A stretch of DNA of 64,000 nucleotides from positions 396,765 through 460,764 of the forward strand of contig CALSNL010000001.1 in assembly GCA_943787705.1 (NCBI GenBank), given 5' to 3'. A model generated the notes under the pieces. The model ran no database searches. It worked only from the letters and a program-made list of their open reading frames with translations, and was not told the DNA's origin. Every line of letters starts with the position of its first letter. Position 1 is the first letter of the stretch. The stretch comes from an uncultured Pseudomonadales bacterium. GTDB lineage: Bacteria; Pseudomonadota; Gammaproteobacteria; Pseudomonadales; UBA7434. Shown one piece after another: positions 22,639 to 55,893 of the stretch. The position numbers and the translations under genes were made by a program.

Positions 22639-25600
22639 ATGTATAAGCTATTAAAAGAAGCATCATTATTAACCTTGGTGGCCTTTTTGTTAAGCGCATG
22701 TGGTGGCAGCTTGAACGAAGGCAATACTGATGTCGCAGACGATGGTCCTTCACCTTCTCGCGAATGGCAGCTGGTCTGGAGTGATGAGTTCGAAGGAACA
22801 GAGCTTGACCTTGCTAACTGGGAAATACAGCTTGGTGATGGTAAGTTTTATGGTCTTAGCGGATGGGGTAACGGTGAAGATCAATACTATACCGACTCGC
22901 CAGATAATATTCGCGTTGAAGACGGCAACATGGTTATTACATCACTCGGTGATGGCGTGCCAATGTCAGAAGTTGACCCTGAATACGGCAACCCTAATAC
23001 GGACTATGATTTTACATCAGCTCGTGTAACAACCAGTGAGCGATTTGAGTTTACTTATGGCCGTGTTGAAGCAAACATAAAAATCCAAACTGTCGATGGC
23101 TTGTGGCAGGCTTTTTGGTTGTTAGGCTCAAACTCTTCACCTTATGGCTCTTGGCCGCAAAAAGGTGAAATCGATATTATGGAAACCTATTCGCCGGGAA
23201 GCCAAATAGTCGGCGGAGCCGCTCATTTCGGTACTACTTTCCCTCTAAATCAGTACGTGTCAAAAAATGCTGTAGGTGATTATGATGATGGTGAATACCA
23301 TCTTTATGCTGTTGAGTGGGATGCGGAGCAGATTCGTTGGTATTTTGATGGCAAGCATTTTTACACTTTAACGCAAAAAAGTTATTGGAATTACTATGAA
23401 GATTCGACCAATGGTTGGATGGGCTATGTTGATAAAAATGGCGATGATATCGATGATAATCTAGAAGTAAATAAGTATCTTCAATATAGCGTTGCAACAG
23501 CTAATGCTCCGTTTGATCAAGACCAGTATATTATTTTAAATACGGCTGTTAATGGAAATTTACCAGAAGGTGCTGGTCATTCTGCAGATACTAATCTCGC
23601 TCTATTTAGGAGAGATGTTAGTTGACTACGTGCGAGTCTATCAGTGTGAATCAGACCCTCTTATTCCTGAAGGCACAGGTTGCAAGTCGTATATTGATAC
23701 TGATGTAAATGAGCCATACTACTCAAGCCCTGCTTTCCGAAGAGATATACCTGCCGAAATAAGTTCTTTTGCTGCCTTCAATGATTTATATATTGACGGC
23801 CCAGGACCTGAAAATATTCTAGGTAATGAATTGAAGTTTTTGGTTACCGATACCGCTTCACTTAATGAGGCTGTTGATCCAGACGACGCTTCAAATACTT
23901 ACTTACACCTTGAGTCACTCGGCATCATAGGTGGGGTTATACCAACTGTCGGATTTGCTCGAGAAGATGATGAGACTTCTATTCTAGCCGGCTTTGAAGG
24001 CTCTCCTGTTGCCTCTGGTGACATCAAATTTGACTTATATGTCGAGAGCTTTGATGAAGAAGCTAGTAACCCCTTATTTTTTGTGGGGATGGCTAATGCG
24101 CCGGACCAGAGAAAATTCACCTCATTATCTTTCAATGATTACGCTGTAGGTGAGTGGCATCGTGTGACTGTGCCCATTGCTGATATTCTTACGGGCTCTG
24201 GTCAGAAGCTAAATACCAAGGTCATATCTGAAGTACTACGTTTTATGGTAAACGCTGAGGCAGTGGTTCGCATTGATAATGTTCAATTTGCTTGCGGTGG
24301 TATAGCGTGCGGCATTATCGATGAAGTGCCTGTGTTTATAGATAGCATTGATCCATTATGGACACGTGGTATTCGCGGTAATGATTCCCAACAAAAATCC
24401 TCTGCCTTTGAAAATCCTGATTACACCGAAAATGATCAGCACCATGTTCAGTGGGAGATTATTGATACCGGTGAAGAAGGTCATGACAATGTCATTCAAA
24501 CGACCATTGGTCCCGGCCGATCAGCTACTGATCCTCTGTTCCCTAGCGAAGCGGTAAACTTTATTGGCTCTTTAAATGCCATTTCAGCGATCGCTGCTTT
24601 AAGTGAGGGTGAGTTCCGCTTTGATATTCGCATGTTACGCAATCCTAATAACGTTGATCTCTATTTTAAAGTGGATGGTGCTTTCAGTTCTACTGGTGAG
24701 CAGCCGTTAACGCTTTCAACACCGGTTGGCGACTGGGTAACTTATCGTTGTTCAATTAAAAACCTAAAATCTCAAGGCCTTGGATGTTGGTACGATTACA
24801 GCGCCTTTTGTTATGGTGCCTGGTCTGAATGGGGCAGGTAAAGATCTTACTTTCCAGTGGGATAATGTTGAGTTTTCACCGGTTAAAGAGGGTGACTCTC
24901 CAAGCTTGCAGTTACCCATCCTGTTTAATGAAGGCGGATTTCTGCTTACCTATTTCACCTTTCTCAGGTGGCTCATTTGGCTTAGTTAATAATCCAGACA
25001 CTGTCGGCCATCCAGCCGATAGTGCAGAAGATGATAATAGTAAGGTGGGTAAGACTATTAAGTCTGATTACGGCGTTACCTTCGGTGGCATTACTCTAAA
25101 TTTAGAAGAGAATATTGTATTTGGTGGTACATCATCAGGTGCTAACAAGCTATTTAAATTAAAAGCCTTTACGCCACGAGATCCTACTTCGAGTTACTCA
25201 AATCCAGCTAATGATGAGCCACCACGCCCATTGGGCAACATGAGAGTTTCGTTTAAATTAGAAGGTGCTCCAGGACTGGGTTCAGACATTGAGAGGGAAT
25301 TTACACTCTCTCAGGAATCGCAATGGGAAGATATTACTATCGATTTCAACGGCGCAGGCGCTGGTGAGTTTAATGGTATAACTATGATCATTGATAACGG
25401 CTATCGTACAAATGGTTTCGTAGATGATTGGACTTTGTACTTCGATAATATCACTCAAGAAGATTCAACTTCGGTTATTGCTAGTTTAAGTGATGATATT
25501 AACGGTGATTCGACGACTTACACCTTTGATGATCAGGTAAATTTCTTTTATCCATCGCCATCAGGTGTTTGTGGTGCACGCGCCACGATTGTTAATGACC

Positions 25601-26063
25601 CTGAAGATATCAATGGCCGAGTAGGTCAGGTTGTTTACGATGTTATTGAGCCATCTTGTGGTAAAGGTGTTACGTTTATTGGTGCGGCGGGCGGCTTCCC
25701 ATGCAGCGATTCCTTTTGAAGCCGGAAGAACGACTGTGAGTATTGATGTTTATACAGATCAAGCCGGTTCTGAAGTGACTATGAAGGTTGAAGATGCGCA
25801 AGACTCTTTTCGTTCTGCTGAGGTAATTGCTGTAACACAGTCGGCGGGTTGGTCAACGTTAGAATTTGATTTCTGCTACGATGGGTATTCAAGTTAATGA
25901 ATCATTTGAAAAAATGATGTTGATTTTTGAACCGAATAAGTGTGTTCAGAATCCTGAATTTGATCCAACGTGTACCAATTTACCGGCCACTGATGTTTAT
26001 TACTTCGATAACATGTTCACGTACTGCCAGCCTATAAAAATTAAGTTACACCTTCTTCGCTGA
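22639..26063 (+). pseudogene. GH16 beta-1,3-glucanase (laminarinase) lipoprotein with four C-terminal beta-sandwich modules, broken by 5 frameshifts (pseudogene or sequencing errors)
   Basis: Lipobox LLSAC and GH16 catalytic motif GEIDIMET. The conserved end of the domain, MLVDYVRVYQ, lies in the next frame. ORFs 22639-23625, 23552-24841, 24780-24989, 24829-25719, 25631-25897 and 25866-26063 join end to end into about 1140 codons. Confidence 0.85.
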
Positions 26064-26143
26064 CTTATGATGCGAAGTAGTGGGGATTAAAATTAAGTAC
26101 GACTGATTATTATCGCTAAAAAATTATAGCTTCGGAATAACAT

Positions 26144-28815
26144 ATGAAACGCGTTAACTTTTTAAAATTATTTTTATTATCGGCCGCCACACTGTTTTTG
26201 TCTGTCTTTGCTATCGCTCAGGAAGATGATGAAGACGGTTACGGTATCGAAGAGGTCATCGTCACCGTAGAGCGTCGTCAAACGAGTCTACAAGACTATG
26301 CTGGAACAGCGGTAAGTATTAGCGCTGAAGAACTCGATATGGGCGGTATTATTAATATCGCTGATTTGGCAGAAAACGTTCCAGGTCTTGATATTGGTCA
26401 AAGTGGCGGTAACTTAGAAGTTTGGGTACGCGGTATTGGTTCATCAAACAATACTGAGCTAGGTGACCCCGCAGCCGCCTTCCATTTTAATGGCGTTTAT
26501 ATTCCACGTCCCTCAGGTATCGGTTCAGCATTTTTCGATATTGCTCGAGTAGAAGTAAACGTTGGACCACAGGGTACGCTTCGTGGTCGTAACGCAATGG
26601 CGGGCTCTATCAATGCCATTACCTGGGATCCGTGGTTAGATAACTATGTTGCTAATGTTGAAGCTGAGATTGGCACTTATGGTCAAAAAGTTTTTCGTGG
26701 TGTGGTTAACGTTCCTGTTGGTGATAGTTTTGCCGCACGTTTAGCCGTTTATAAAATGGATCACGACTCTTACTTTAAAGATGTTAGTGAGAAAAACTTA
26801 GGCGTTTCTGAAAAAGAAGATAATTTTGGAACACGTTTATCTTTCCTTTACGAGCCAAATGATGATTTACGCGTTCTGTTTTCTGCAGACTATTTGCTAG
26901 AAGAAGGTACGGGTTGGACCGGTTCTAACTACGCTAATTTATTAGGTAATGATATCGATCCACAATCAGTTGATAACCCACGTACCGTTTATGCCCGTGG
27001 TTTTGAGCCAGAGCTTTACAACCCGCATTGGGGTATTAAGTTTCAAGTTAATTATGAGTTAGGTTTTGCTAATCTTGAGTATATGTTTGGTCATCGAGAT
27101 CTGCTCGCTAATTACCGTGCCGCTACACCTTTAACGCCTGATTACCCTGGTGTACGAGGAAGTTTAGCGCCTATAGAAGAAGCTTTAGATAATTGGTCGT
27201 TCTATCAAAGTTCTACGGGTTCAGTGTCTAATATCCATGAATTAAGATTGGTTTCTCCGTTTGATCAAACCGTTTCTTACACGATTGGTTTATTTTACTT
27301 TGAAGAAGATCAGCACAGCTTCTTAGCTTCAACTGGCGATAGAGCAACTTATTTCCAAGGCTTCGAATTTAATCAGCCAAATACTAATTCCGATTCTGTC
27401 TCTATTTATACAGATGTTACATGGAACATTTCAGACAGCACTCGTCTAACGGGTGGTTTACGCTTCTCTGATGACCACAAAGAACGTCAAGGTGTAAATG
27501 CTTCATACCGCTTTTGCTTAGGCGCAGAGAACGAAGACGGTAATGCTGGTGTTTGTCAGGGCGCTAGAGTAGGTACTCCTGGGTTTGAATTTACCGGCCT
27601 AGACAGAACCATTTATGATCCTGATATCAATGGCGATGGTAGTGTATCTGATGATGAGTTCTTAGCCTTTTACTACGATGGCATTAAAAGCTTTGGTGTC
27701 AATGACACTATCGACGATATTCTTGCTGGTGGTACATTTGTTACAGGTAGCAACCCAACACCTCCAGATTGTCCTGATGTAGACAGCACAGATGGTATTT
27801 ACACACAAGCGGATGGCAAGTGTGGCGAAATTTATATTATTGATCCAGGCAATGCCATAACAGTTCAGGATGGTGAAATCGATGATAATTTTGTTGATTG
27901 GCGCATTCGTCTTGAGCATGATTTTGATGACGACCTTCTTACCTATGGTTTAATTGCCACTGGTCATAAAACTGGTGGTTTTAATGATAACTTTCCAGGT
28001 TTAGATCGCCCGGTTAGTTATGGTACTGAGCAGGTTACACTGTATGAGTTAGGTTTTAAAAATACCTTCGATGTAGGCTCAATTCCTACCCAACTTAATG
28101 GTTCGCTTTTTTACAATGATTATACTGACCAAGTATTTTGTAATGTTGTTACTGTAGAGCAGGCCATTGAAATTGCTGAAGAAGGCAGTTCATCGACTGA
28201 TGAAGCGCCAAGATCTTCTTTAGGTGTTAACTTCTGTTTTAATGCTGCCAGCTCAAGCATTAAAGGTTTCCAGCTTGATGGTAAGTTCTTATTCCCTTGG
28301 GACTTAACGTTCACGTGGACTTATTTGTATTTGGATGCAACTATCGATCAGGCTGATCCGATTCAAGATTCTCGTTACCAAGCAGATATTGATCCACTCA
28401 ATGCTCGATTTATTGATATCTCAGGTAACCGATTACCAAGAACGGCTGAAAATCAATTTAACTTCTCTCTAGGTCCAGTCGCTAGATGTAGCTACTGGCC
28501 GCTTTCGATTATTTATTATCAGTCGGTTATCGAGATGATCATTTCTTATCCATCTATAACAGCTTGGATTATAGCCGCGAATTTGAAGAAACCGGTATAG
28601 TTGATCCTCGCTTAGATGATTTGGTTAAAGGTTACTGGACGGTTGACCTAGGTATTGGTTATAACCATGGTGATACTAACTTGCGCCTTGAAGGTTATGT
28701 TAACAACCTTACTGATGTTGTTCAGCCTACAGCCATGCTAATTACCCAAGACAGTAATACGCGTTTCTTTACACGTCCTAAAATATACGGTTTCCGTATT
28801 AAATGGGGTTTATAG
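26144..28815 (+). pseudogene. TonB-dependent outer-membrane receptor, interrupted by two frameshifts about 28 bp apart near the C-terminus
   Basis: Signal peptide, plug region (EEVIVTVERRQTSLQD...) and a long beta-barrel. The last ~110 residues (LDVATGRF / DYLLSVGYRDDHF...YGFRIKWGL) continue in other frames (28482.. then 28507..). Confidence 0.85.
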
Positions 28816-28846
28816 AAGTCGCTTTAGTTTAGTGTTAGTGTGTTCT

Positions 28847-28875
28847 AACGGCAGGCCTTTGGGTCTGCCGTTTTC
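28847..28875 (+). terminator. rho-independent terminator after the receptor gene
   Basis: aacggcag gcctttgggt ctgccgtt followed by a T-run. Confidence 0.75.
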
Positions 28876-28998
28876 ATTTAAGCGTCGTTTTTTTGCCTCG
28901 TTTGCCTAAGTATTTTCTTGTATTTCATTTTTTATTCGCTATTTATTTTCATTTGTGTAGAATCCCGCCTCAAATAATAACCCTTTGAGGCATTACTG

Positions 28999-30228
28999 AT
29001 GACTAACTCCTCCGCTACTCAAAAACAAAATGGCTATGGCTTTGCCCTTGTGTCGTTAACGTCACTATTTTTTATGTGGGGTTTAATTACTAGCCTCAAT
29101 GATGTGTTAATACCGCGTTTAAAGGCAGTATTTGAACTTAGCTATACCGAAGCAATGATGGTGCAGTTTTGTTTTTTCTTTGCTTATTTTGTTGTTTCAC
29201 TACCCGCCGGAAACTTAGTTAAGAGAATAGGTTATAAATCAGGCATTATTATCGGTTTAATTATTGCCGGTATCGGCTGCGCATGCTTTTATCCCGCGGC
29301 CGCTTTTCAGTCATATAACTACTTTTTAGCTGCGTTATTCATCATGGCTTCCGGTATTACCTTGTTGCAAGTTGCTGCCAACCCTTATGTGACTGTATTA
29401 GGAGATTCTGAAACAGCCAGTAGTCGATTAACTATGACACAGGCGTTTAACGCTTTAGGTACAACGATTGGGCCATGGATAGGGGGTATATTAATTCTTG
29501 GTTCAGCGACTAGTGCAGTAGAGAATTCGGTAGCCGATGCCAGTTCAGTGCAAATGCCATATCTTGCTTTAGCGGGTGCATTAATTTTAATGGCAGCCAT
29601 TTTCTCAATATTAAGACTACCTACGGTAGATGTTGAAGATGATTCAGCAGCAGTTGATCCGTCGGAAGGCTCCGCTTGGACATACTCACACTTAGTCTTA
29701 GGCGCGTTAGCTATCTTTTTATATGTTGGTGCTGAAGTGTCTATTGGTAGCTTTTTAATTAACTTTTTAGGTGAAGCAAATATTGCTGGTCTTGAAGAAT
29801 CTGATGCTGCCAAATACGTTTCTTTTTATTGGGGTGGTGCAATGATAGGCCGCTTTATAGGTGCGGCGGCTATGCAGTTTATTCCTGCTGGTAAGGCCTT
29901 AGCGTTTAATGCGCTAGCAGCATCTGTCCTGGTTGCGTTAGCCGTATTTACCGATGGTCAAGTAGCTATGTGGTCTATCTTGTTTGTCGGCCTATTTAAT
30001 TCAATTATGTTCCCAACTATCTTTAGTTTAGCCATTAAAGGATTAGGTCAGCATACCAGTCAAGGCTCTGGCATATTATGTCTAGCGATTGTCGGTGGCG
30101 CTATTGTGCCTTTATTACAAGGTGTATTGGCTGATACTTACGGTGTGCAGCCAGCGTTTTTATTGGCTATTGCCTGTTATGTTTACATCATATTTTATGG
30201 CTTAAAAGGTTCAGTGCCTAAAGCATGA
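28999..30228 (+). CDS. gluP: glucose/galactose MFS transporter (FucP/GluP family)
   Basis: [19 protein letters not shown] is a signature of the GluP/FucP subfamily. 12 TM segments, 409 aa. Confidence 0.85.
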
Positions 30229-30289
30229 TTCGAGTAAAAATTTTATGAGTAATGATTTAAACGTCATTCCTCATATAATAAAACGCACA

Positions 30290-30318
30290 AAAAAAGACGG
30301 CTAAGGCCGTCTTTTTTG
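30290..30318. terminator. bidirectional terminator between convergent gluP and glk
   Basis: An A-run, then agacggc taag gccgtct, then a T-run. Confidence 0.8.
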
Positions 30319-30348
30319 TATTCAAATATTAAAAATATAAACGATTAA

Positions 30349-31400
30349 TTACTCTGGGCTATAAGCTGCTGCACCAATTAAACCAGGCTGTGGTTCAATG
30401 ATTAAGTGCGTTGAAATTGCCTTATTATAATCTGACATAACACCCTTACTTTCAAAGCGATGACGAAAATTACTGGCCGATAAAAACTCAACAAACTTCG
30501 GCAAAATTCCACCCGCCAAAATCAAACCACCCTGAGCACCTGTACAAAGTGCTTGATCCCCCGCAGCACTGCCTAACAAAGTACAAAAGGCGTGCATCGC
30601 TTGTCGGCAATAATTATCTTTAGTCGTTGTACCATCTCCACAGCCACGTTGCTGAATTTGTGGAGCCGTTAAAGATTTTGCATCGTCGAGTGGCGCGCCA
30701 TTATTATTAATAGCAACAATCGCCTCATACAAACGCTCAATGCCAGCACCACAAACAAAGAACTCGCGGTTAATACGGCTTCCCTTAGCGCGCCAATAAT
30801 CAAAAATGGAAAGCTCAAGAGAGCTGCGTGCACTTATAGCTGCGTGTCCACCTTCGGTCGCGACTACTTTATAGCTTGGCTTTTCAGTATTACTTGGCTT
30901 TTCAGTATTACTGATAACGGAATTAATAATGCTGCACCAAGACCAGTGCCTGGACCAAATAAAGAAATCGGTGCACCAGGATTAGCTTTGCCCTCACCAA
31001 TAGAAATTAATTGCGAATCATCGAGATAGGGCACAGAATGAGCAATCGCCGCAAAATCATTTATTAACCAAGCATGCTGGATATTTAAAATATCTTTTAA
31101 TAAATCAGTCGATATTTCCCAATCGTAGTTAGTCATCTTTACTTTATTATCAAAGATCGCGCCGGCAACGGCAAAGCAGCAAGACTTTATTTTTTGAGTG
31201 TCATCGTTGAGGTTTTTATTCGCTAAGTAATGAGTAATTAAGTGCTTAAGATCTTCATAATCACGTAAGCTAAACTGCTCAATTTCACGCAACGCGACTT
31301 TACTATTGTCCGTGTTATCAACACCGTCGCAAATCGCAAAACGGATATTAGTGCCACCAAGATCGGCAACTAATCGAGGGAAGACATTTTCGTTTGTCAT
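30349..31400 (-). pseudogene. glk: glucokinase, split by one frameshift (about 30919-30926)
   Basis: The N-terminal ORF has LVADLGGTNIRFA and GPGTGLGAA. The other frame is open from about 30960 and reads SVISNTEKPSNTEKPSYKVVATEGGHAAISAR...CGAGIERLYEAI. Confidence 0.85.
30875..30910. repeat. perfect 18-bp tandem duplication inside glk (cttggcttttcagtatta x2)
   Basis: Direct reading of the sequence. The duplication is in-frame and encodes NTEKPS twice in the glucokinase frame. Confidence 0.95.
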
Positions 31401-31427
31401 TATACTAATCCTATAAAATGCGAGGAA

Positions 31428-33251
31428 CTAAACGGTTTCCCAGTGTTGAAAAACCGTTGCACCTTGTTCTGCACCATTCACTTGACCGCGCATAAAGCCA
31501 AATAACTCACGCCCTGTACCAAACTGAGATCCAGTAGGGTTGTAAGCGACTAACTCGCGACTCTGCCATTCGGCTTCATCAACTAAGGCTGCAACCTCGC
31601 CAGTATGCGCATTAAGACGAACAATATCACCGTCTCTTAATTTTGCTAACGGCCCGCCGCAGGCTGCTTCTGGTGTTATATGAATGGCCGAAGGTACTTT
31701 ACCTGATGCGCCAGACATACGTCCGTCAGTAATTAGCGCAACCTTAAGGCCTTTATCTTGTAAGATGCCAAGGAAAGGTGTCATCTTATGAAGCTCAGGC
31801 ATACCGTTAGCTTGCGGGCCTTGAAAGCGCACAACAGCTACAACATCTTTTTCCATTAAGCCTTGTTCAAAAGCCGTTTGTAATTCTTGCTGGCTATCAA
31901 AGATCATCGCCGGTGCTTCTATAACGCGATGCTCTTCAGCAACAGCTGAAACTTTTATAACGCTTCGGCCTAAGTTGCCTTTTAATAAACGTATGCCGCC
32001 ATCAGCCTGAAAAGGCTTTGATGCTGTAGCCACGACTGTAGGATCGCCACTGACTTCATTAATATCTGACCATTGGACTTTGTTATTCTCCCAATGAGGG
32101 CGTTGTGTAAAGTGCTTAAGGCCTTTGCCCCAAACGGTCATTACATCGTTATGTAAAAAGCCTGCATCAAGTAATTCACGAATAACAAATTCACTGCCAC
32201 CAGCGGCATGAAAATGATTCACATCGGCTGTCCCGTTAGGGTACACACGAGTGAGTAGGGGGGTTACAGCTGAAAGATCAGAGAAGTCTTCCCAGTCAAT
32301 AATAATGCCTGCAGCGCGGGCAATGGCCACCCAGTGAATGGTATGGTTAGTTGAGCCGCCAGTAGCCATTAAGCCTACTAGTGCATTAACAATAGTTTTT
32401 TCATTAACCACTTCACATAAAGGTGTATAGTTTTTTCCTAAGTCAGAAATTTTGCAAGCTTGCTCGGTAGCGGCTTCAACTAAACCGGTACGAAGGTCTT
32501 CACTTGGATGAACAAAGGCAGAGCCGGGCACATGAAGCCCCATCACTTCCATAAGCATTTGGTTACTGTTGGCAGTGCCGTAAAACGTACAAGTGCCGGC
32601 GCTATGATAGGCCGCAGATTCAGCCTCCAATAATTCATCATCGCCCACTTCGCCTTTAGCATATTGTTGACGTACTTTTGCTTTTTCACCGTTGGATAAG
32701 CCAGAACCCATTGGTCCTGCAGGCACCATAACCATAGGCAGGTGACCAAAGCTAAGTGCGCCAATTAATAAGCCAGGAACAATTTTATCGCAAACGCCAA
32801 GACAGACAACGGCATCAAACATATTGTGGCTAAGAGAGACTGCGGTCGCTGTAGCAATAACATCACGGCTAAATAAGCTTAGCTCCATGCCTGCGGTACC
32901 CTGAGTTACGCCATCACACATGGCCGGAACACCACCAGCAAATTGTGCAGTACAACCCATTTTATGTGCGGATTTTTTAATAACTTCTGGATACTCAGCA
33001 AACGGTTGATGTGCTGATAACATATCGTTATAGGCGCTAACAATGCCAATGTTCGCGGCGTTTTCAAGACGCATGGTGTCTTTGTCGTCACTGCTACAGG
33101 CGGCAAAGCCATGAGCTAAATTACTACAGCCTAGCGCACCACGTTGCGGGCCGTTATCGCGCATTTCTTCGCAGCGAGCTAAATAGTCGGCTCGTGTTTT
33201 TACAGAGCGATCAATAATGCGTTGGGTAATTTTTTCTACTGTGGGGTTCAT
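31428..33251 (-). CDS. edd: phosphogluconate dehydratase (Entner-Doudoroff)
   Basis: The N-terminus [30 protein letters not shown] parallels E. coli Edd. IlvD/Edd family, 607 aa. Confidence 0.95.
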
Positions 33252-33343
33252 GCTGTGGCCTATTAAATATGATGGGCTGTAAATATAAATTATGGATAGT
33301 TTATCTTGCTAAAAAGATAAACTAATAAATACTAAGCTAGCTT

Positions 33344-34072
33344 TTAGCTAGCCCAGTAAATATTAACCGCTTGCTCTAATTGAGAAAGGGTTCGATGAAT
33401 AGGTAGGGCATCATTTGTATTAAGCCCGCTCTCTAATACTTGACGCTTATCATCGCCAGTAATATGAAGGTAAAGATGTTTTGCTGCTGCAACGCAGGGA
33501 TAGCTTAAAGTAATGCGAGGCATTGGCTGCGACGGCGGTAAGGTGCTCAGAGTTAAACTGCCACCTGTCGCATCTAATGCACAATCGATCTCTGGCGCAT
33601 CAGGAAACCAAGAAGCTGTATGACCATCGCCACCCATACCTAAGATAACAACATCAAAAGGTTGTTTAATCTCAGTTGCAAGTTTGTTGTTGTAATCAAT
33701 GACACCTGAAGCGACATCATCATGCGCTGATTTCATACCAATAAAATTGGCCGCTGCCGCATGGTTAATTAGAAAACATTCGCGAAGCATGCGCTCATTA
33801 CTTTGATCACTGTCGGGTTCTACCCAGCGTTCATCGACCAGAGTGATATCGACCTTTGACCAGTCGATATCAACTTGGCTTAACGCTGAAAATAAAGCCT
33901 TAGGCGTTGAGCCGCCAGAAACAGCAATACTTGCTTTGCCATCATCATTAATAGCTTGGGTCAGTTGTTTAACAATAGAAGCTGTTAATGCTGACTCTAG
34001 CTCTGCGCGATTATCAAAATGAAGCTGCTTATGCTTATTAATGATTTGCTCTATCGTTTGAATGCTACTCAT
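33344..34072 (-). CDS. pgl: 6-phosphogluconolactonase
   Basis: SGGSTP and GMGGDGHTAS motifs. ATGA overlap with zwf. Confidence 0.92.
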   Translation of the reverse strand: MSSIQTIEQIINKHKQLHFDNRAELESALTASIVKQLTQAINDDGKASIAVSGGSTPKALFSALSQVDIDWSKVDITLVDERWVEPDSDQSNERMLRECFLINHAAAANFIGMKSAHDDVASGVIDYNNKLATEIKQPFDVVILGMGGDGHTASWFPDAPEIDCALDATGGSLTLSTLPPSQPMPRITLSYPCVAAAKHLYLHITGDDKRQVLESGLNTNDALPIHRTLSQLEQAVNIYWAS

Positions 34073-35592
34073 GATTCGTGCCAGCTTCTGTCATCACGCT
34101 CAGGAAGCGCAAGTGACTTAGTCGGGCCCATGGTGCCAGATGCATAAGGTTTAACTTTCAAACCGACATCGGTCCAGCTACTAATAATACTATCTGTCCA
34201 GCGCCATGCAGCTTCAACTTCATCGCTACGCATAAAGAGTGTTTGGTCACCATTAACAACATCCAATAATAAACGCTCGTAGGCATCATAGCTTTGTGAG
34301 CCATCTTCTGGATCAACACTTAAATCTAGCGCAACAGGCTGTAATTTTAATTTACCTGAAAGGCCAGGTTTTTTATGCAGTGTATGCAAACGGATATTTT
34401 CATCTGGCTGAATAGTGATAACCATTTTGTTGGCGAAGTCATTTGGATCATCTTCAAATAAAGAGAACGGTTGGCGTTTAAATTCAATCACGATTTCAGA
34501 ATATCGACGACGCAGACGCTTGCCGGTACGCAGATAAAATGGAACGCCTGCCCAGCGCCAGTTATGCACTTCGGCTTTAAGCGCAACAAAGGTTTCAGTG
34601 TTAGCAAATTGACTGCTTTCACCCTCGTTATCTTTGTAATCGTCTTCTTCTAAAAAGCCAACGACTGATTCGCTATCAACCGCGCCGCCTGTATATTGAC
34701 CGCGTACAACGTTATCTCTCACACTTTCTGAAGTGATAGGGCTTAACGCCTCAAGCACTTTAACTTTTTCATTACGAATAGCATCGGCATTGAGTTTTGA
34801 TGGTGGCTCCATAGCTACCATGCTGAGTATTTGTAATAAATGGTTTTGAACCATATCACGCAGTGCGCCTGTTTTACCGTAAAAAGCGGCTCGGCCTGCA
34901 ACGCCAATGGATTCAGCAACAGTAATTTGAACATTGTCGATATAGCGGTTATTCCATAGTGGATTAAAGAGCGCGTTACTAAATCGAAGTGTTAGCAAAT
35001 TCTGTACAGTTTCTTTGCCTAAATAGTGGTCAATACGGAAAGTTTTGGATTCATCGAAAACTTTACCCACTGCGGTATGTATTTCATTACAGGTTTCAAG
35101 ATTATTACCCAGCGGTTTCTCAAGTACTACTTGATCTATATCGGTAGCCAAACCATGTGATTTTAAATTTTCACAAATTGCACCATAAAGGGACGGCACG
35201 GTACTTAAATAATATGTTACCGGTGCGCGATTACCATCAATGGTTATCATCTCTGCTAGATCATCATATTGCGCTGAATTGGTAGCTTCGAGTTTGCAAT
35301 AATCCACTAGCTTAATGAATTTTTGCCACTCAGCTTCAACTGCTGCATTTTCAGCGTCGGAGTTACCTGAGAATAGTTTTCTTTTCTCGTCAACTAGGGC
35401 TATATATCCGTCGCGATCAAGCGCTGCACGACCAGTGCCAATAATTTTACCTACCGAATCGAGTAAGCTGCGTTGATTAAGGCCAAATAATGCAGGAAGA
35501 AGTTTACGAAGGGCAAGGTCGCCGTTGCCACCAACAATAACAATTGTTGATTTTAATTCGGTGTTGATTTTAGCTGTCATAGAGCAATCCAA
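34069..35592 (-). CDS. zwf: glucose-6-phosphate 1-dehydrogenase (start probably ATG at 35580)
   Basis: GGNGDLALRKLLPAL, RIDHYLGKE and EKPLG motifs. Confidence 0.95.
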   Translation of the reverse strand: MDCSMTAKINTELKSTIVIVGGNGDLALRKLLPALFGLNQRSLLDSVGKIIGTGRAALDRDGYIALVDEKRKLFSGNSDAENAAVEAEWQKFIKLVDYCKLEATNSAQYDDLAEMITIDGNRAPVTYYLSTVPSLYGAICENLKSHGLATDIDQVVLEKPLGNNLETCNEIHTAVGKVFDESKTFRIDHYLGKETVQNLLTLRFSNALFNPLWNNRYIDNVQITVAESIGVAGRAAFYGKTGALRDMVQNHLLQILSMVAMEPPSKLNADAIRNEKVKVLEALSPITSESVRDNVVRGQYTGGAVDSESVVGFLEEDDYKDNEGESSQFANTETFVALKAEVHNWRWAGVPFYLRTGKRLRRRYSEIVIEFKRQPFSLFEDDPNDFANKMVITIQPDENIRLHTLHKKPGLSGKLKLQPVALDLSVDPEDGSQSYDAYERLLLDVVNGDQTLFMRSDEVEAAWRWTDSIISSWTDVGLKVKPYASGTMGPTKSLALPERDDRSWHES

Positions 35593-35977
35593 TGGAGTTT
35601 TTTCAATAGTTCATTATGTAATGCTGTGTATCAAATATTTTTTATCAATTAATACTTTATGATATTGAACACAGACTTGTATTTAGGCTGATTATTATAG
35701 ACTTTAATGACGTAGATTAGGTGTTTTATGTTATTGCTGCCAGAAAAATACGTCAAGCACCTATTATTGTCTGTTAGTTTAAACAAAAACCCGAAGTATA
35801 AACATTATATTAGAGGCTATTCACCCGTATAATGTCACATAAGCAGATGCTGTTTCGTCAGGGCTTTACTCGATTTAAGATGGCAGACGGTCTTTGGTTT
35901 ATAATTTGTAGTTGTTTATTTCCAAAACCGACAATTATTCGTTTATTTTTAAGACTCAATAACAGGAAAATCCATAC

Positions 35978-36613
35978 ATGCACGATCCATCTCAAGAACA
36001 AAATAAGCAATTATTAAGTACTATTGGTCCCGTTGTCCCGGTTGCAGATTTTATCGATGAAGGGCATGCAAGTGCTTGTTGCGAGCTTTATACAGAGTGC
36101 GGCGTGCCAAGTGTCGAAGTAACACTTAGACGGCCTAACGCTTGGGATAGTGTGCGTAAATGTATTGAATTAATGCCCAATGCCCATATCGGTATTGGTA
36201 CGGTTATTGAGGCCGATCAATTAAGACAGGCTAAAGATCTAGGGGCTGCGTTCGCAATAAGCCCAGGTATTTCAGAAGAGCTAGTGTTATTAGCTCAGCA
36301 GTTAGATTTACCTTATTACCCAGGTATTGCAACGGCTAGTGAATTAATGAAAGCTCGCAGTTTAGGCCTTAGAGCCGTTAAGTTTTTCCCAGCTGAAGCG
36401 GCTGGCGGTATTCCCATGCTAAAGAGTCTGGGATCACCTTTTCCTGATATGGTCTTTTGTCCAACAGGCGGCATTAGTGTCAAAAACTATCAGGATTACC
36501 TAGCACTTGGCAATGTCAGCTGTGTTGGTGGTAGCTGGGTGGTGCCTAGTCAGGCTGCTTTAGCAGAATCGCCAGATACGGTTATTGCCGAATTAAAACA
36601 GCTTTACGGCTAG
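35978..36613 (+). CDS. eda: KDPG / KHG aldolase
   Basis: GPVVPV, VEVTLR and the Schiff-base region VKFFPAEAAGG. AGGAAA ribosome-binding site. Confidence 0.92.
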   Translation: MHDPSQEQNKQLLSTIGPVVPVADFIDEGHASACCELYTECGVPSVEVTLRRPNAWDSVRKCIELMPNAHIGIGTVIEADQLRQAKDLGAAFAISPGISEELVLLAQQLDLPYYPGIATASELMKARSLGLRAVKFFPAEAAGGIPMLKSLGSPFPDMVFCPTGGISVKNYQDYLALGNVSCVGGSWVVPSQAALAESPDTVIAELKQLYG

Positions 36614-36781
36614 CCATTAATGACACTTGGTTTAACGATTTAACTGGGTGTGACAGCTACTATTTATTGATATTTTTTTAACTCATTAATGTTTCATTTT
36701 TCGCGTACAAGGTCTGCTTATCTTCAATATCCTTGTTCGTATTAATATATTAATTTATTTCACTTAGGTTTAAAGTATTTT

Positions 36782-38236: not shown

Positions 38237-38305
38237 CATTTAACCTCTATTTCTTTTCCTTCCTCGCGGGTAAGCTTCTTACCCGCATATGCATTTATTT
38301 AATGT

Positions 38306-38325
38306 CTTGTCACATTTCTGTCATA
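38306..38325 (+). promoter_or_regulatory. Pho box upstream of phoBR
   Basis: CTTGTCAC ATTT CTGTCATA, two 7-bp half-sites with 11-bp phasing. The consensus is CTGTCATA(A/T)A(A/T)CTGTCA(C/T). Confidence 0.7.
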
Positions 38326-38423
38326 TTGCTAGTCTAGCCTTAATGCCTGTTTCATTGTTCTAATCACTATTTACTTCTGTTTTAAGCAGATGTTCAAATG
38401 TGCGTTGCTATAGTTAACTATCT

Positions 38424-38462: not shown

Positions 38463-38544
38463 CCGCTTTTAGTTAATTCATGAATAGGCTGTAGAGAATC
38501 TGTAGCCATAAACGTCTTTTTTAATATATAAAGATTACTGATAA

Positions 38545-39258
38545 ATGATTGCTTATAAAATTCTTGTTGTTGATGACGAAGACGCTATTAGAGAGATGAT
38601 TAAAATTTCTCTGGAGTTAGCGGGGTTTCAATGTCTTGAAGCTGCCACGGCAATGGATGCGATGCCCTTAATTGTTGATGAGCGGCCAGATCTTATATTA
38701 CTTGATTGGATGATGCCTGAGGTCAGTGGTATTGAATTGCTGCGCCGACTTCGTCGCAATGATATGACTAAAGACATTCCAGTGATTCTTTTAACGGCGA
38801 AGGCCGAAGAGCAGAATGCTGTCCAGGCTCTCGATTCTGGTGCCGATGACTTTATCACTAAGCCTTTTAGGCCGCGTGAGTTAACGGCTAGAATAAAGTC
38901 GCTACTTCGCCGCACCGAAACAGTGACTGTTAATAAATTGATCGCCGTTAAAGGCTTGAGTCTTGACCCCATTGGCCATCTTGTTCTTATAAATGATAAA
39001 CCTGTGAGTATTGGCCCTACCGAATTTAAGTTACTTAAATTCTTTATGTGTCATCAAGAGCGGGTTTATACCCGCGGGCAGCTGCTTGATCAAGTATGGG
39101 GGGCTAATATTTATATAGAGGAGCGCACCGTTGATGTGCATATACGGCGGCTTCGTAAGGTATTAATGTCTTTTGATAGTGACGATTTTAAACTCGGCGA
39201 TTTTATTCAAACAGTACGTGGTACTGGCTACCGTTTTTCGGCTACACTAGCGACTTAG
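38545..39258 (+). CDS. phoB: phosphate regulon response regulator
   Basis: OmpR-family receiver plus winged helix (VDVHIRRLRK, VRGTGYRF). Adjacent to phoR and pst. Confidence 0.93.
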   Translation: MIAYKILVVDDEDAIREMIKISLELAGFQCLEAATAMDAMPLIVDERPDLILLDWMMPEVSGIELLRRLRRNDMTKDIPVILLTAKAEEQNAVQALDSGADDFITKPFRPRELTARIKSLLRRTETVTVNKLIAVKGLSLDPIGHLVLINDKPVSIGPTEFKLLKFFMCHQERVYTRGQLLDQVWGANIYIEERTVDVHIRRLRKVLMSFDSDDFKLGDFIQTVRGTGYRFSATLAT

Positions 39259-39357
39259 TTTGGCGGCACATTTATCTATTCTATAATGTGTACACTCTTT
39301 ATTCTTTGACGGTAAATAGTAGATGCACTCTCATTCCTTCGCTGACTCAATACGGTC

Positions 39358-40686
39358 ATGAAATCCTTATTTAGTAGTGAGCTGTCTAAGATATCCTTTC
39401 TATCTTTTATGGGTATTTTGGTTGGCTATCAGTTAGGTAATATCTGGCTAGGCCTCTCTATAGCTCTAAGTATTTATCTTATTAGTCACCTCTATTATTA
39501 TCGCCGCTTAGATGAATGGTTAGCTAAGGGTGGCCGCGTAGAAAAGCCTTTTACTAATTTATTCTGGTCAACCATTATGGATCAGGTACTGCGCTTACTT
39601 AATCAGTTGCGTAGAGATAAAATTCAGCTTAAATCTGATTTAGATTATTTTAAAGAGTCATTCCAAGCGTTGGACAGTGGTGTGGTAGTTGTCGATATTA
39701 AAGGCTCTATCGACTGGTGCAATATAGCGTCTTCACCCTTGTTAGGGCTTGATCTTGAGCGTGATAGAAAGCAGCCTTTTCATAACTTAGTGCGCGCTCC
39801 CGAAGTGCTTACTTATCTTGAAGCGCGTGATTTTGAAAAGCCACTGTATATTGTATCGCCTTGCTCTCTAGACCTTCATCTAGAGCTTCAAGCAACCACC
39901 TTTCGTCAAAACTACACGCTCATTTTTGCCAGAAATGTCACTGATGTCTTTAAGTTAGAAACAATGCGTCGAGATTTTGCAGCTAATGTGTCGCATGAGC
40001 TTCGCACGCCATTAACGGTTATTAAAGGCTATTTAGAAACGCTGCGTGATCATAGTGATGAGTTGCCAGATATTTGGCCGCGAGCGATAGATCAAATGTT
40101 AGATCAATCGGATCGAATGGACTCTATGGTAGAGGATCTTATTTGGCTATCTCGTCTTGAGGCGCTTCCCGTCAAAGAGGATGATATCGAATTGATCGAC
40201 CTCAGCGCTATTCTCGCCAGTGTAATTAATGATGCTCAGGTCTCTGCTCCTAATAAGTCTATTCAAGTGGATATTGCCGTTGATCAATTCAGTGCTTTGA
40301 ATCAACCGCCCACTGAACCACTGCAGATTACTGGTTGTTATCTTGAGTTACGAAGTGCCTTTAGTAACTTGGTGCAAAACGCAGTTAAGTACACTGCTAA
40401 GGATGGTCAAATACAAGTTCAGTGCTTTCCTCATAACGATAACCTTGTGGTTCGAGTTGTTGATAATGGTGATGGCATCGATTCCTTGCATATCCCTAGA
40501 CTGACTGAGCGGTTTTATCGGGCAGATGCGAGCAGAACATCATCAACGGGTGGTACTGGCCTTGGCCTAGCCATTGTTAAGCATATATTGGCTCGGCATG
40601 AGGCTGAACTAGATATTAAAAGTGAGGTGGGGGTAGGTAGTCAGTTCTCTTGTCTGTTTCCATTAGCGCAGCTTTATCGGCCATAA
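39358..40686 (+). CDS. phoR: phosphate regulon sensor kinase
   Basis: Two N-terminal TM segments, a PAS-like region, H-box SHELRTPLTV, and HATPase segments (DNGDGI, GGTGLGLAIV). Confidence 0.92.
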   Translation: MKSLFSSELSKISFLSFMGILVGYQLGNIWLGLSIALSIYLISHLYYYRRLDEWLAKGGRVEKPFTNLFWSTIMDQVLRLLNQLRRDKIQLKSDLDYFKESFQALDSGVVVVDIKGSIDWCNIASSPLLGLDLERDRKQPFHNLVRAPEVLTYLEARDFEKPLYIVSPCSLDLHLELQATTFRQNYTLIFARNVTDVFKLETMRRDFAANVSHELRTPLTVIKGYLETLRDHSDELPDIWPRAIDQMLDQSDRMDSMVEDLIWLSRLEALPVKEDDIELIDLSAILASVINDAQVSAPNKSIQVDIAVDQFSALNQPPTEPLQITGCYLELRSAFSNLVQNAVKYTAKDGQIQVQCFPHNDNLVVRVVDNGDGIDSLHIPRLTERFYRADASRTSSTGGTGLGLAIVKHILARHEAELDIKSEVGVGSQFSCLFPLAQLYRP

Positions 40687-45880: not shown

Positions 45881-45906
45881 GCCAACAAATAAGGGGTTAA
45901 TATTTA

Positions 45907-46823: not shown

Positions 46824-46869
46824 GACTGCGGGCGAAAGAGATCTGCTACAAGGCTAGCTAATAACTCGC

Positions 46870-48153: not shown

Positions 48154-48216
48154 AAACAACGACCTATCATATGAACAAATTAGATTAAAAGAATTTTGTT
48201 TTATTAATTATTATTG

Positions 48217-48894
48217 TTAACTAGCAATCAGTAACTGCATGCGTGAGCCAACTTTTTGAGCGCGATCTGCGAGCTCGCCAATGCCATCGATAATGCGGTA
48301 TAGAAACATAACATCGATGGGAGAGAGTTTGCTTTCTAGCTTAAAGAGCTTTGCACGAACAGCTATTTGCAGCTTATCATTTTTATTTTCGAGGTCATCG
48401 AGTTCTTCAATGAGGCCTTCTACTAAAATAAGTTCGCGCCCTCTAAAGCCCGTTGATAGCAATTCATCCATTTCATTAATAGCTTTGAGTGCCTGTGCTG
48501 ATGTAGCGACAGCGGTTTCAGCATATTCAAGAATAATTTCGGCCATGGATTCAGGAATAACCATTTTTCGGCCCATCATAATGCCGCTAATGTCTTTAGT
48601 GCAGTTAGCGATTTTATCTTGTCGGCCAATAAGGTCGAGCATGTCCGAACGATGGACAGGCATTAATAAGTTCTTAGGCAGATTTAGACGTAAATCTTTT
48701 TTGATTTTATCGGCTTTAGCTTCGAGCTTAGAGATAGTGCTTCGAATTTGCTTGGCTGTAGCCCAGTCATCTTGCAGGCTGGCTTCTATAAACGGAATTA
48801 GCTGTTGGGCGCATTCATGTACGCGGGCCATATGAGTTTGGATGGGGCGTATAGGTGATTGACCAAATAGATTGGAAAAGGGGTTGCCTGCCAT
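48217..48894 (-). CDS. DUF47 / PhoU-like Pit accessory protein
   Basis: 225-aa helical protein directly upstream of pit in the same operon, the arrangement typical of the TIGR00153-type family. Confidence 0.8.
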   Translation of the reverse strand: MAGNPFSNLFGQSPIRPIQTHMARVHECAQQLIPFIEASLQDDWATAKQIRSTISKLEAKADKIKKDLRLNLPKNLLMPVHRSDMLDLIGRQDKIANCTKDISGIMMGRKMVIPESMAEIILEYAETAVATSAQALKAINEMDELLSTGFRGRELILVEGLIEELDDLENKNDKLQIAVRAKLFKLESKLSPIDVMFLYRIIDGIGELADRAQKVGSRMQLLIAS

Positions 48895-48977
48895 AATTAT
48901 CTCTCTCTTGCTTTATAATGCGTGTAATTACGCTTAGGCTGGCAATTATAGATATTCTGCCGGCCGCGTACAGCGTT

Positions 48978-48997
48978 TTATTACATTTTTATGACAG
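48978..48997 (-). promoter_or_regulatory. Pho box upstream of the DUF47-pit operon
   Basis: The minus strand reads CTGTCATAAAAATGTAATAA, about 85-100 nt upstream of the start codon. Confidence 0.65.
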
Positions 48998-49325
48998 TTA
49001 GGGGCTGCCCTTATTGGGCGTTTATTGATCTATTTGTTGTTGAGAATTAAGGGTTCTGACTGCGTAAGTGAGTTGGTCGAGAATAAATACTTATTCCAAC
49101 ATTTTAGTATAAGCTTTGTTAATGAATACTTTGTAGCTTGAAATGATTCTTTTTAACGGCTGGGTCTATTCAGCATTACTAGATATGATGCATTATTGTT
49201 AATAGGGTGCCACACTCATAGAGCCTTAAGGCTCGTTTAATGCTCGATTTTATAACGAGTGCTAATAAAAAATTATTTTCGCCTTATCTTTTTATTCGTT
49301 TAAGATGAGACTTTCCTTTTATTGA

Positions 49326-51194: not shown

Positions 51195-51215
51195 GTTTAT
51201 GGTGTGTAATTTAGA

Positions 51216-51243
51216 TAAAAAAAAGAGGGCGATTAAGCCCTCT
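51216..51243 (-). terminator. rho-independent terminator of the porin gene
   Basis: The minus strand reads gagagggc ttaatc gccctct followed by T8. Confidence 0.8.
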
Positions 51244-51279
51244 CAAAAACACTATAAATAAAAGAATATAAATTAACAA

Positions 51280-52229
51280 TTAAAACTTAATTTCATAACC
51301 TAATGCAAAAGTATTGGCATCAGTGGTAACGCCGTCATCTGCTTCAACTTTTGCGTAATAGCTAAAGATTTTAGACTTTTTACCTAGCTTGTAATCAACA
51401 CCAACTGCTGTTTGTGTGATCTCTTTTGTTTCGTCATCTGATTCAGCATACTGTCCTTTAAGGATAAGGCCATTCGATAACTTATACTCGCCGCTAAGTA
51501 CAAAGCCGTCTTCATCATTGCTGCCTTCATCGGCAACTTGATAGAGTGCGCCAAGCTTGAATCCATCACCTTTATACTCACCAACTAAGCGAGTTAACGA
51601 TTCAACACTGCTGTCAATCGTTTCGCCGTCGTCATGTGCAACAGTAAACGAATAACCGTTAGCTTTGTAGGATATAGCAGCTGAAACACCGTCTGTAACA
51701 TCACCGTCATCTTCTTCACCTGGAACAAAGGCTACAGTCGCTGATAAGCCATTCATTTTTGGTGTTGTATACATAATGATATTTTTAGCGCGGTTTTCAC
51801 CTTGAATAACATTTTTGATGTCGCCCAATACTAAATCATTAAAGCGATCAATTTTTCCTTGCGCTAATTTAGTAGGGGTGTCGTGGTTACCTGCAATGAT
51901 AGTACCAAAGCCACCTTGAAAACCGGCATAAATATTACGCTGCTTAAATTCGCTATTACTATCTTCTTTTCCATCATCGCCATCATCAATAAAAGTTTCA
52001 TATTCAAACTTATAAATAGCTTTAATTGAATCCGAAGCATCAAAAGAACCTTTAATACCAAAGCGTGATGCATTGCTGTTTAAGCTTTCCTAGTGTCGCT
52101 GCTGCCTTCGTCGTCAGTCTGGTTTAGGCTTAGATTCGCTTTGCCATAGACCTTAGGGTCGCCTGCTAAAACGGTTGTTGCATTTAAGCTTGCTGCAATT
52201 ATTGCTAAAGATAGAATTTTTTGTTTCAT
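51280..52229 (-). pseudogene. Gram-negative porin with Pho-box promoter, split by one frameshift near 52086-52091
   Basis: GGAGA ribosome-binding site plus MKQKILSLAIIAASLNATTVLA signal peptide from 52229, running into a stop after ...GSSDTRKA. The next frame continues SLNSNASRFGIKGSFD...FALGYEIKF, with the terminal Phe typical of OM beta-barrels. Confidence 0.8.
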
Positions 52230-55882: not shown

Positions 55883-55893
55883 CTGTGCATATT

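Follow-up and report, generated by a model that had tools for sequence, protein, structure and literature searches.

The window, a 64,000 nt stretch of DNA from an uncultured Pseudomonadales bacterium, carries between positions 20292 and 38236 genes for a LytTR two-component system, a GH16 enzyme, a TonB-dependent receptor, an MFS transporter and glucokinase, followed by edd, pgl, zwf, eda and pyk (Table 1). Gene content and order resemble those of the laminarin/β-glucan loci of gammaproteobacteria. The same order was kept in the sister lineage L031, and also in L032 save for an N-run that interrupts the GH16 gene; this N-run is the cause of the split of GH16 in L032 (471 and 711 aa, in a short-read MAG), which was rejected as a case of genuine inactivation. 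The GH16 gene product belongs to glycoside hydrolase family 16; its lipoprotein signal is LSAC, and its catalytic ExDxxE motif reads EIDIME in the sequence. Its activity and substrate are predictions. Judged from the family, the locus would act on a laminarin-type substrate or β-glucan. The MFS transporter protein was identical to that of at least 21 other contigs.

The window was compared with 12 contigs at 99.2–99.6 % identity, which included both short-read-style and long-read-style assemblies. L031 and the more distant L032 were used as the source of alternative alleles. Relatives are entered in public records as Cellvibrionales or Pseudomonadales, and the bacterium, which is marine, may belong to the SAR92 clade.

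Table 1. Genes, frame lesions and other features in the window
Position	Strand	Feature	Details
22639..26063	+	GH16 β-glucanase gene, laminarinase-like (predicted)	Pfam PF00722, E=2.4e-15, above cut-off
23601	+	Extra T	GCC TAT to GC-T-C TAT; sister L031 has GCT
24703..28506	.	Strain-specific haplotype tract ('allele B')	3.8 kb; private SNPs and stacked insertions
24778	+	Extra C, window-private	Leu codon TTG to CTTG; L032 has CTT
24942	+	Extra C, window-private	Phe codon TTT to TTT-C; L032 has TTC
25703	+	Extra G, window-private	CCA TCA to CCAT-G-CA
25875	+	Extra G, window-private	TTC TCT to TTCT-G-CT; sisters have G at codon position 1 (GGT/GGC, Gly)
26011..26036	+	GH16 3' tail lesion	Mosaic of the common tail (..DNVQLLPPIQN, then stop) and the L031/L002-type tail (..DNIVLP..)
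26066..26104	+	Intergenic private indels 3' of GH16	-AA after 26066; +1 at 26103/26104
26144..28815	+	TonB-dependent receptor gene (Plug and barrel)	889 aa in relatives; broken near 3' end
28474	+	Extra T, window-private	GGC to GG-T-C; L031 and L032 have GGT
28506	+	Extra C, window-private	TTT to TTT-C; L031 has TTC
28999..30228	+	MFS transporter gene	Intact, member of the β-glucan locus
30349..31400	-	Glucokinase gene (glk)	350 aa in relatives; two pieces in the window
30911..30912	+	Missing T, window-private	TT to T
51280..52229	-	Porin gene	314 aa in relatives; single frame break, N-terminal variable stretch
52078..52112	-	Chimeric stretch in porin	5 nt too long; two in-frame alleles merged

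Over positions 22639–26063 the reading frame of the GH16 gene followed the path 0>1>2>0>1>2, giving six frame pieces and five breaks. Intact orthologues of 1132 aa were found in L001, L003, L005, L006, L009 and L031, and deletion of the five true extra bases yielded a protein that matched that of L001 save for two residues and the tail. The insertion at 23601 was the only lesion that was also found in other contigs (L002, L004, L007 and L010, all of long-read style). At 25703 the allele match was through L032 alone, making this the weakest of the eight insertion sites, and the residue encoded at 25875 was variable (S/G) among cluster members; read as variants, the insertions at these two positions would be non-synonymous. 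The tail lesion (net +2) altered the last nine GH16 codons and lengthened the ORF. Natural tail variants among the cluster members comprised NVQLLPPIQN, NIVLP and NITILPL. Downstream of the gene, the extra base at 26103/26104 formed a stacked T/C pair at a position where the sister lineages have C.

In the TonB-dependent receptor gene, a net shift of +2 was located near 28474–28506. After repair the protein was that of L001 except for G783A and I784T. Exact copies of the common receptor protein were present on 88 contigs; the repaired form (A783, T784) was not found in a collection of 15 billion proteins, and residues 783–784 were GI or PT, never AT, among the receptor cluster members listed. 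The two glk pieces lay at 30349–30732 and 30864–31400, and putting back one T gave a glucokinase identical to that of L001. Position 30911 adjoins the edge of an 18 nt tandem duplication, which the sister lineages do not have. This lesion is a plain TT-to-T change, for which the stacking of alleles described below does not account.

The porin gene contained one frame change, near 52080–52110. The anchored segment 52030–52170 was 141 nt long in the window, compared with 136 nt in each of two porin alleles, A and B. The window sequence was the exact union of the two, with a base present in all 10 indel columns, and it switched at least eight times between A-specific and B-specific states. Each allele was seen in short-read assemblies (A in L017 and L019, B in L016 and L018), and the porin was whole (314 aa) in short-read contigs. 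Hybrid segments of 137–142 nt were present in five of six long-read contigs, and the form of the break differed from one long-read contig to the next.

An earlier note on this DNA had listed nine frame breaks, five in GH16, two in the receptor and one each in glucokinase and the porin, and had described each as repairable by one base in a short homopolymer. All nine breaks were present, but the list was incomplete, since the GH16 tail holds a tenth frame-affecting lesion (26011–26036) and the intergenic indels at 26066 and 26103/4 must be added. Its placement of the sites stood at 24778 only; the true GH16 sites were otherwise 23601 (placed at 23605-07), 24942 (placed 18 nt away, at 24960-62), 25703 (25698-700) and 25875 (25870-72), and those in the receptor were 28474 (28475-76) and 28506 (28503-05). 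It was right that glk is one base short, although the T is missing at 30911 rather than at about 30921-24, whereas the porin, also described as one base short, is instead 5 nt too long over 52078–52112.

Only two lesions, 24778 (C to CC) and 30911 (TT to T), change the length of a run, so that the proposed signature of homopolymer-length error was not borne out. Six of the eight single-base insertions were not homopolymer extensions, the added base differing from those on either side (as in TTTT to TTTCT). Runs of at least 2 nt accounted for 48 % of bases (20.6 runs per 100 nt), and because runs are this dense a run in which to 'repair' a break is always at hand, which makes such repair uninformative as a criterion. 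The repairs in homopolymers wrote 10 wrong residues into GH16, including the motif GFHAAIPFEAG, which is truly GFPSAIPFEAG.

The private lesions were absent from the 10–12 contigs with 99.2–99.6 % identity, and every lesion in the window except 23601 was private. All short-read-style relatives from independent samples, at the same level of identity, had intact GH16 (1132 aa), receptor (889 aa) and glucokinase (350 aa) proteins; the comparison with orthologues in the closest genomes, which had been proposed earlier as a check, found all four genes whole in short-read relatives. There were eight single extra bases in total, of which seven were private and one was shared with sibling long-read contigs only. 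No window-private indels occurred in 1–15500, 31000–38100 or 52150–63300. Between 19000 and 38100, private indel columns numbered 10 in the window, 0–1 in five short-read contigs and 0–20 in seven long-read siblings; outside this region the short-read contigs had only multi-base block or 3 nt indels. Lesions of this class were present, at other positions, in long-read contigs from the sample series of the window, and fumarase, PhoU and PhoR were fragmented in other long-read siblings. In L008, private insertions at 23727 and 23863 fell exactly on known SNPs and bore the other allele, and four of six further insertions in this contig matched sister-lineage states.

Most of the lesions were confined to the tract 24703–28506, which contained 12 of the 14 window-private SNPs and seven of the eight stacked insertions. 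Nine of 11 private coding SNPs were synonymous, whereas random changes would be synonymous in 22 % of cases (P=4.7e-5). The co-located substitutions are therefore real variants and not noise, and selection in the tract is not relaxed. Nine of 12 private tract alleles matched L031 or L032. In all eight single-base insertions, the inserted base was the base of L031 and/or L032 at the adjacent homologous position, one at which the main population has another base (null 0.20 per site, P=2.6e-6); the match with L031 alone was five of eight (null 0.07, P=8.7e-5). All seven coding lesions of the GH16 and receptor genes were +1 insertions (P=0.008), and the ratio of indels to SNPs in the tract was approximately 1:1. 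Counted against stacking, the haplotypes differ at 20 or more sites of the tract, of which only about eight were stacked and the other 12 were resolved. At the codon level, an insertion could be read as a synonymous SNP at 4–5 of seven sites (33 % expected, P ~0.1–0.17); this result was only suggestive, and the sister-lineage allele test was used in its place.

Independent assemblies thus lacked the lesions, and every inserted base corresponded to an alternative allele. We conclude that the frameshifts are very probably consensus artefacts arising from mixed haplotypes in a long-read metagenome assembly, and not real mutations. Two closely related strains of one bacterium would have co-occurred in the sample, and reads of their two haplotypes would have been merged into a single consensus at 24703–28506, at 23601 and in the variable porin loop, with two read populations expected at each site. 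Where the haplotypes differed by a substitution, both bases would sometimes have been written side by side, producing a false +1 insertion; where they differed by a short indel, the longer state of each would have been kept. During polishing, indels may have been cheap and mismatches expensive, a setting that would favour 'both bases, each read missing one'. The platform and assembler were probably PacBio HiFi and Flye; a paper from the laboratory that probably produced the data describes how PacBio Sequel II HiFi reads were put together by Flye --meta (PMC10108472). The window itself would come from a very long contig: its 296 aa GH16 fragment was represented in the protein collection from a single contig of 688,934 bp. 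In a separate index, neither this fragment nor the 408 and 818 aa fragments and the 622 aa acyltransferase of the window had an entry. Three features that would mark a mixed-haplotype consensus were found together: absence of the lesions from independent assemblies, both states at haplotype-variable sites and co-location with the strain tract. On this reading, both strains most likely have whole genes for GH16, the TonB-dependent receptor, glucokinase and the porin, and the predicted β-glucan (laminarin-type) uptake and Entner–Doudoroff locus is most likely functional.

The insertion at 23601 was considered separately, as it might be a genuine frameshift allele that segregates in the bloom population and splits GH16. 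The same extra T was found in the window and in four contigs from different samples (L002, L004, L007 and L010), it was partly linked to the SNP 23553T, and gene callers gave ORFs of 328 aa and 814/807 aa in L004 and L010. However, all contigs with the insertion were long-read ones from a single series; five short-read contigs lacked it, as did L003 and L009, which are long-read contigs too, and it occurred on two haplotype backgrounds that are approximately 3 % apart. The exact 328 aa truncated GH16 product was likewise found in two long-read contigs only. The sister codon is GCT, so that GC-T-C is an exact stacked C/T pair, and the truncated ORF would drop the conserved last strand YLGEMLVDYVRVYQ, which was kept in all full-length variants. 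A scan of JGI metagenomes at this site, with GC, CT or GCT allowed between constant flanking sequences, gave just two matching contigs, each with the intact GC. The recurrence of the insertion fits the same pair of alleles co-occurring through the time series and would fit a real allele too; taken together, a real allele at this one site seems very unlikely. The in-frame 'CT' of L008 at 23601 was also considered as a real Leu allele and was dropped, the CT form not having been found in the JGI scan.

Ordinary read error, in which random or homopolymer-length indels survive in a stretch of thin coverage, would account for the bunching of lesions in one 3.8 kb stretch, a length roughly covered by a single long read or by a few. 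The changes at 24778 and 30911 are formally of homopolymer length, and local clusters of errors were seen in the long-read siblings. Random errors would not be expected, however, to insert the sister-lineage allele at eight of eight sites, and most of the insertions do not extend a run; as the extra bases are non-homopolymeric and match alternative alleles, they point to a mixture of strains and not to read noise. The synonymous excess marks the neighbouring substitutions as real variants, and two known alleles together account exactly for the porin stretch. Read error is accordingly a very improbable source of the pattern. The earlier suggestion of a sequencing or assembly artefact named the right kind of cause, though not one of homopolymer miscounts.

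A recent and genuine pseudogenisation, in which the strain lost GH16, the TonB receptor, glucokinase and one porin by repeated frameshifts, is hardly credible. In its favour, the genes hit by lesions are functionally linked members of a single catabolic locus, the remaining ORFs of 100 aa or more appeared intact, and the tract that bears the lesions is a real strain-specific haplotype. The concentration in the catabolic island was thereby confirmed, but it loses its force as a hint of inactivation, since the lesions sit in the strain-specific 3.8 kb tract. Seven +1 insertions, no deletions and nearly as many indels as SNPs are far from natural mutation spectra, and the tract shows purifying and not relaxed selection. 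Glucokinase was otherwise 100 % identical to that of relatives, in which the genes are intact in short-read assemblies, and GH16 differed by 2 aa. Every 'mutation' would have inserted precisely the alternative allele of the neighbouring base, and we know of no mutational process that does so. Siblings of the same series broke other genes (fumarase and PhoU) in the same way, and eight of the nine listed breaks were either unique to the window or, in the porin, formed differently in each long-read contig. A phase-variable contingency locus was rejected because the runs at the lesion sites are 1–4 nt with no long repeats, and programmed ribosomal frameshifting because the orthologues are single uninterrupted ORFs.

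The frameshift-truncated ORFs of long-read (PacBio/Nanopore) metagenomes are a comparable artefact: there too, single-base indels split conserved genes, and short-read assemblies of the population in question do not show them. Protein-length tests, IDEEL among them, gauge this class of artefact, and frameshift-correcting tools patch it. Collapse of two haplotypes into one sequence also produces consensus errors, at sites that are heterozygous or vary between strains. The lesions of the window were likewise at haplotype-variable sites with both states kept, and were likewise mosaic over a few bases (porin and GH16 tail). The usual account of long-read artefacts is homopolymer miscounting or low coverage, whereas the bases added in the window are non-homopolymeric and correspond to alternative alleles. 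Frameshift artefacts have been acknowledged for long-read metagenome data (PMC10877868, PMC13087279, PMC8864044), and a companion of the HiFi and Flye paper (PMC10877868) explained its use of a frameshift-tolerant gene caller on PacBio assemblies as 'due to a higher number of frameshifts'. Several broken genes in one functional locus are also a feature of bacterial frameshift pseudogenes in gene loss; in contrast to true pseudogenes, the lesions of the window were not reproduced in near-identical genomes, were biased to +1, matched alleles and lay where selection was not relaxed. With the artefacts taken out, the locus is an ordinary one in comparison with known laminarin/β-glucan utilization loci.

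With a mixed-haplotype consensus as the preferred explanation, no pseudogenes should be annotated in the laminarin-type uptake locus of this gammaproteobacterium, an abundant marine organism; the locus should be entered as intact. A false +1 insertion in a long-read contig from a metagenome can flag a hidden SNP between co-assembled strains, and frameshifts produced by stacking cluster in strain-variable tracts, where they can mimic targeted gene loss. Repair by hand in the nearest homopolymer restores the frame at the price of wrong residues; comparison with sister lineages reveals both the true site of a lesion and its cause. Should the extra T at 23601 be real, the catalytic domain would be made as a protein of its own, apart from the C-terminal part, and this abundant marine polysaccharide degrader would have a natural polymorphism for a split enzyme.

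The region 20292–38236 of the window constitutes a conserved sugar-utilisation locus. A walk through the reading frames confirmed that nine breaks in four genes (GH16, TonB receptor, glucokinase and porin), as described in the earlier note, are present in the sequence: the GH16 frame ran 0>1>2>0>1>2, the receptor underwent a net +2 shift close to its 3' end, and glucokinase and porin showed one frame change each. The lesions were placed by multiple alignment and by pairwise alignments of the window with its relatives.

Genes and sequence lesions in the window, with the states of stacked sites in the main population, a sister lineage and the window
Feature	Position	Gene or region	Remark	Main population	Sister lineage	Window
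LytTR-type two-component system	20292–22339	locus	first in locus order			
Large GH16 glucanase	22639–26063	locus	lipoprotein signal; catalytic motif EIDIME			
TonB-dependent receptor	26144–28815	locus	after GH16			
MFS transporter	28999–30228	locus	after receptor; intact			
Glucokinase (glk)	30349–31400	locus	minus strand			
edd, pgl, zwf, eda, pyk	within 20292–38236	locus	after glk; Entner-Doudoroff and associated genes			
Porin	51280–52229		minus strand			
+T	23601	GH16	common to window, L002, L004, L007, L010	GCC	GCT	GCTC
+C	24778	GH16	private to window			
+C	24942	GH16	private to window	TTT	TTC	TTTC
+G	25703	GH16	private to window			
+G	25875	GH16	private to window			
3' tail mosaic	26011–26036	GH16				
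-AA	26066	intergenic				
+1 base	26103/4	intergenic	states given for 26104	T	C	CT
+T	28474	TonB receptor	private to window	GGC	GGT	GGTC
+C	28506	TonB receptor	private to window	TTT	TTC	TTTC
-T	30911	glk	private to window			
5-nt excess	52078–52112	porin				

Once aligned to relatives, the break positions originally read from the window did not hold. Each break had been regarded as repairable by one base in a run of 2–3 nt, the signature of homopolymer error, but the length of a homopolymer was altered at 24778 and 30911 only, and because runs of at least 2 nt cover 48 % of bases, such repairability is uninformative. The proposed repairs did restore the frame, although they introduced ten wrong residues into GH16. 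With the true extra bases removed, GH16 differed from the near-identical contig L001 by two residues and the tail, and the receptor by G783A and I784T only; glucokinase with its lesion corrected was identical to the L001 protein.

The exact MFS protein, the methyltransferase adjoining the porin and GroEL were each found on many public metagenome contigs, and 32 fetched stretches were aligned to the window (99.2–99.6 % identical for contigs carrying the GH16 locus, mostly 98–99.9 % for the others). Assembly type was judged by contig name, with SPAdes NODE_, MEGAHIT k141_, JGI Ga... and scaffold_ names taken as short-read. Comparison with orthologues, suggested in the earlier note as a check, found all four genes whole in near-identical relatives: every short-read-named contig carried GH16 as a single ORF of 1132 aa, the receptor of 889 aa, glucokinase of 350 aa and the porin of 314–315 aa. 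All genes of the locus were also intact in L031, a sister species with 89 % nucleotide identity. The seeming division of GH16 into two ORFs in L032, a short-read MAG from another sister lineage, was due to a run of N (11300–11325 of L032) and not to a frameshift.

In a four-way alignment of the window, L001, L031 and L032 (75 % identical), the extra base at all eight single-base insertions (8/8) was the base of a sister lineage at the adjacent homologous position, the main population differing there. A random insertion satisfies this adjacent-allele criterion in 20 % of cases (P=2.6e-6 for 8/8); with L031 alone, five of the eight sites matched, against a null of 7 % (P=8.7e-5). Eight sites were stacked, with both alleles of one SNP written side by side as a false +1 insertion, and 12 were resolved, with one allele kept. 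The lesions, 23601 aside, were absent elsewhere, were located at variable sites and held both states. The breaks had rightly been read as artefacts, but of the wrong kind, the extra bases being alternative alleles and not homopolymer errors. It is improbable that the +T at 23601 represents a real segregating frameshift allele. Five contigs, of different sample origin, carry it, but stacking would also explain this if the same GCC/GCT pair was present together over the time series; in L031 the site indeed reads GCT.

A private-SNP scan of all window positions covered by at least five relatives identified only 14 substitutions distinguishing the window from all covering relatives, 12 of which lay within 24703–28495, where the insertions also cluster. 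Of the 11 coding private substitutions, nine were synonymous third-position changes, compared with 22 % expected at random (P=4.7e-5), and nine of the 12 tract substitutions were states seen in a sister lineage. Being mostly synonymous and in sister-lineage states, the tract substitutions are true variants of a second haplotype, not noise. The clustering of breaks, earlier thought a possible sign of inactivation, has a technical cause, since the insertions are co-located with this strain-specific tract. That the locus as a whole has really been inactivated is very improbable, given that seven of the seven coding lesions counted were +1 insertions, that the indel-to-SNP ratio was about 1:1, that selection was not relaxed and that no mutational process is known to insert the neighbouring allele.

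The window's 296-aa GH16 fragment in the protein collection derived from one 688,934-bp contig (NCBI, ENA), a length implying a long-read assembly. Thirty PacBio Sequel II HiFi metagenomes containing several co-occurring SAR92 genomes have been assembled with Flye --meta --pacbio-hifi (PMC10108472). In a companion paper of that group, genes on PacBio assemblies were called with a frameshift-tolerant program ‘due to a higher number of frameshifts’ (PMC10877868). There are hints that the window belongs to this project and to the sample of L003/L025; in that case its assembly would also contain another contig of the same species whose genes are intact, which would directly show that two strains had been assembled together. 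Stacking could arise during consensus polishing under an error model in which indels are cheap and mismatches expensive; a mixed T/C read pile would then be best fitted by writing both bases, with each read ‘missing’ one. The biological interest of the breaks is low, and the methodological lesson is modest.

Among sibling long-read contigs (named ‘contig_N’, in a series of consecutive ENA assembly accessions) fragmented genes were common, the gene and the position differing per contig; GH16 was broken in L002, L004, L007, L008 and L010. Two private insertions in L008 (23727 and 23863) fell exactly on SNPs between a divergent and the common haplotype, the inserted base being the other allele, and four of six further L008 insertions were sister-lineage states. 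Over 19000–38100, private indel columns numbered 0–1 in five short-read contigs, 0–20 in seven long-read siblings and 10 in the window; in the remaining compared regions, short-read contigs had multi-base block or 3-nt indels only. Genes intact in the window were found in pieces elsewhere, namely fumarase (four pieces in L030, 13551–15071), PhoU (three pieces in L013, 4075–4791, and L014, 3447–4167) and PhoB/PhoR (L004 and L010, 19478–21100).

A 136-nt stretch of the porin gene occurred as two in-frame alleles, A (L017/L019) and B (L016/L018), each confirmed in short-read assemblies. The window version was 141 nt long, had a base in all 10 columns gapped in either allele (10/10) and switched at least eight times between A-specific and B-specific states; judged from these alignments, the porin break is of the same nature as the stacked insertions. 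In the GH16 3' tail, too, the window combined two naturally occurring variants as a mosaic. Among the intact GH16 proteins compared (P0016–P0027), the last 5–10 residues (26000–26063) varied (NVQLLPPIQN, NIVLP, NITILPL). The N-terminal variable stretch of the porin (52078–52112) had at least two natural alleles, SGSSDTW and DDEGTDTT, and in L016 the C-terminal strands (51313–51430) took a third form; the variable segments probably correspond to loops exposed at the cell surface and subject to diversifying pressure.

The sole single deletion, at 30911, lay at the edge of an 18-nt tandem duplication (30881–30916), in which TTTTCAGTATTACTTGGC stands twice on the minus strand and encodes SNTEKP twice. 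All 99 %-identical relatives carried the duplication; L031 and L032 lacked it, and their glucokinase has 344 aa compared with 350 aa in carriers. The edge of the duplication is a plausible misalignment site that could account for the deletion.

Site patterns over 19–38 kb were incompatible with one another, a sign that recombination may be frequent in the population. A divergent GH16 haplotype common to L007 and L008 (23259–23871; ~20 SNPs in 600 nt, ~3 %) covered the last part of the catalytic domain together with the linker after it. At the 3' end of the pyruvate kinase gene there was a sharp haplotype boundary (38134–38342 and 38528–40273), beyond which only L002 and L009 followed the window; L004 and L010 matched again at just 92–93 % over phoB/phoR, and the others stopped aligning. 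A stretch of ~650 nt (17540–18188), overlapping most of a 192-aa ORF (17660–18238; weak CBM_4_9 match in L025), was missing from the short-read contigs L021, L022 and L024 and present in the others, and is therefore a presence/absence polymorphism. The only true homopolymer-length differences seen were outside genes, in intergenic poly-A/poly-T runs at 30289 and 28888 that varied among contigs, one JGI contig included. An 11-nt intergenic indel (11188–11198) was common to six of 10 relatives, and the short-read scaffolds L022 and L024 carried larger block insertions of ~150 to 900 nt (about 3202).
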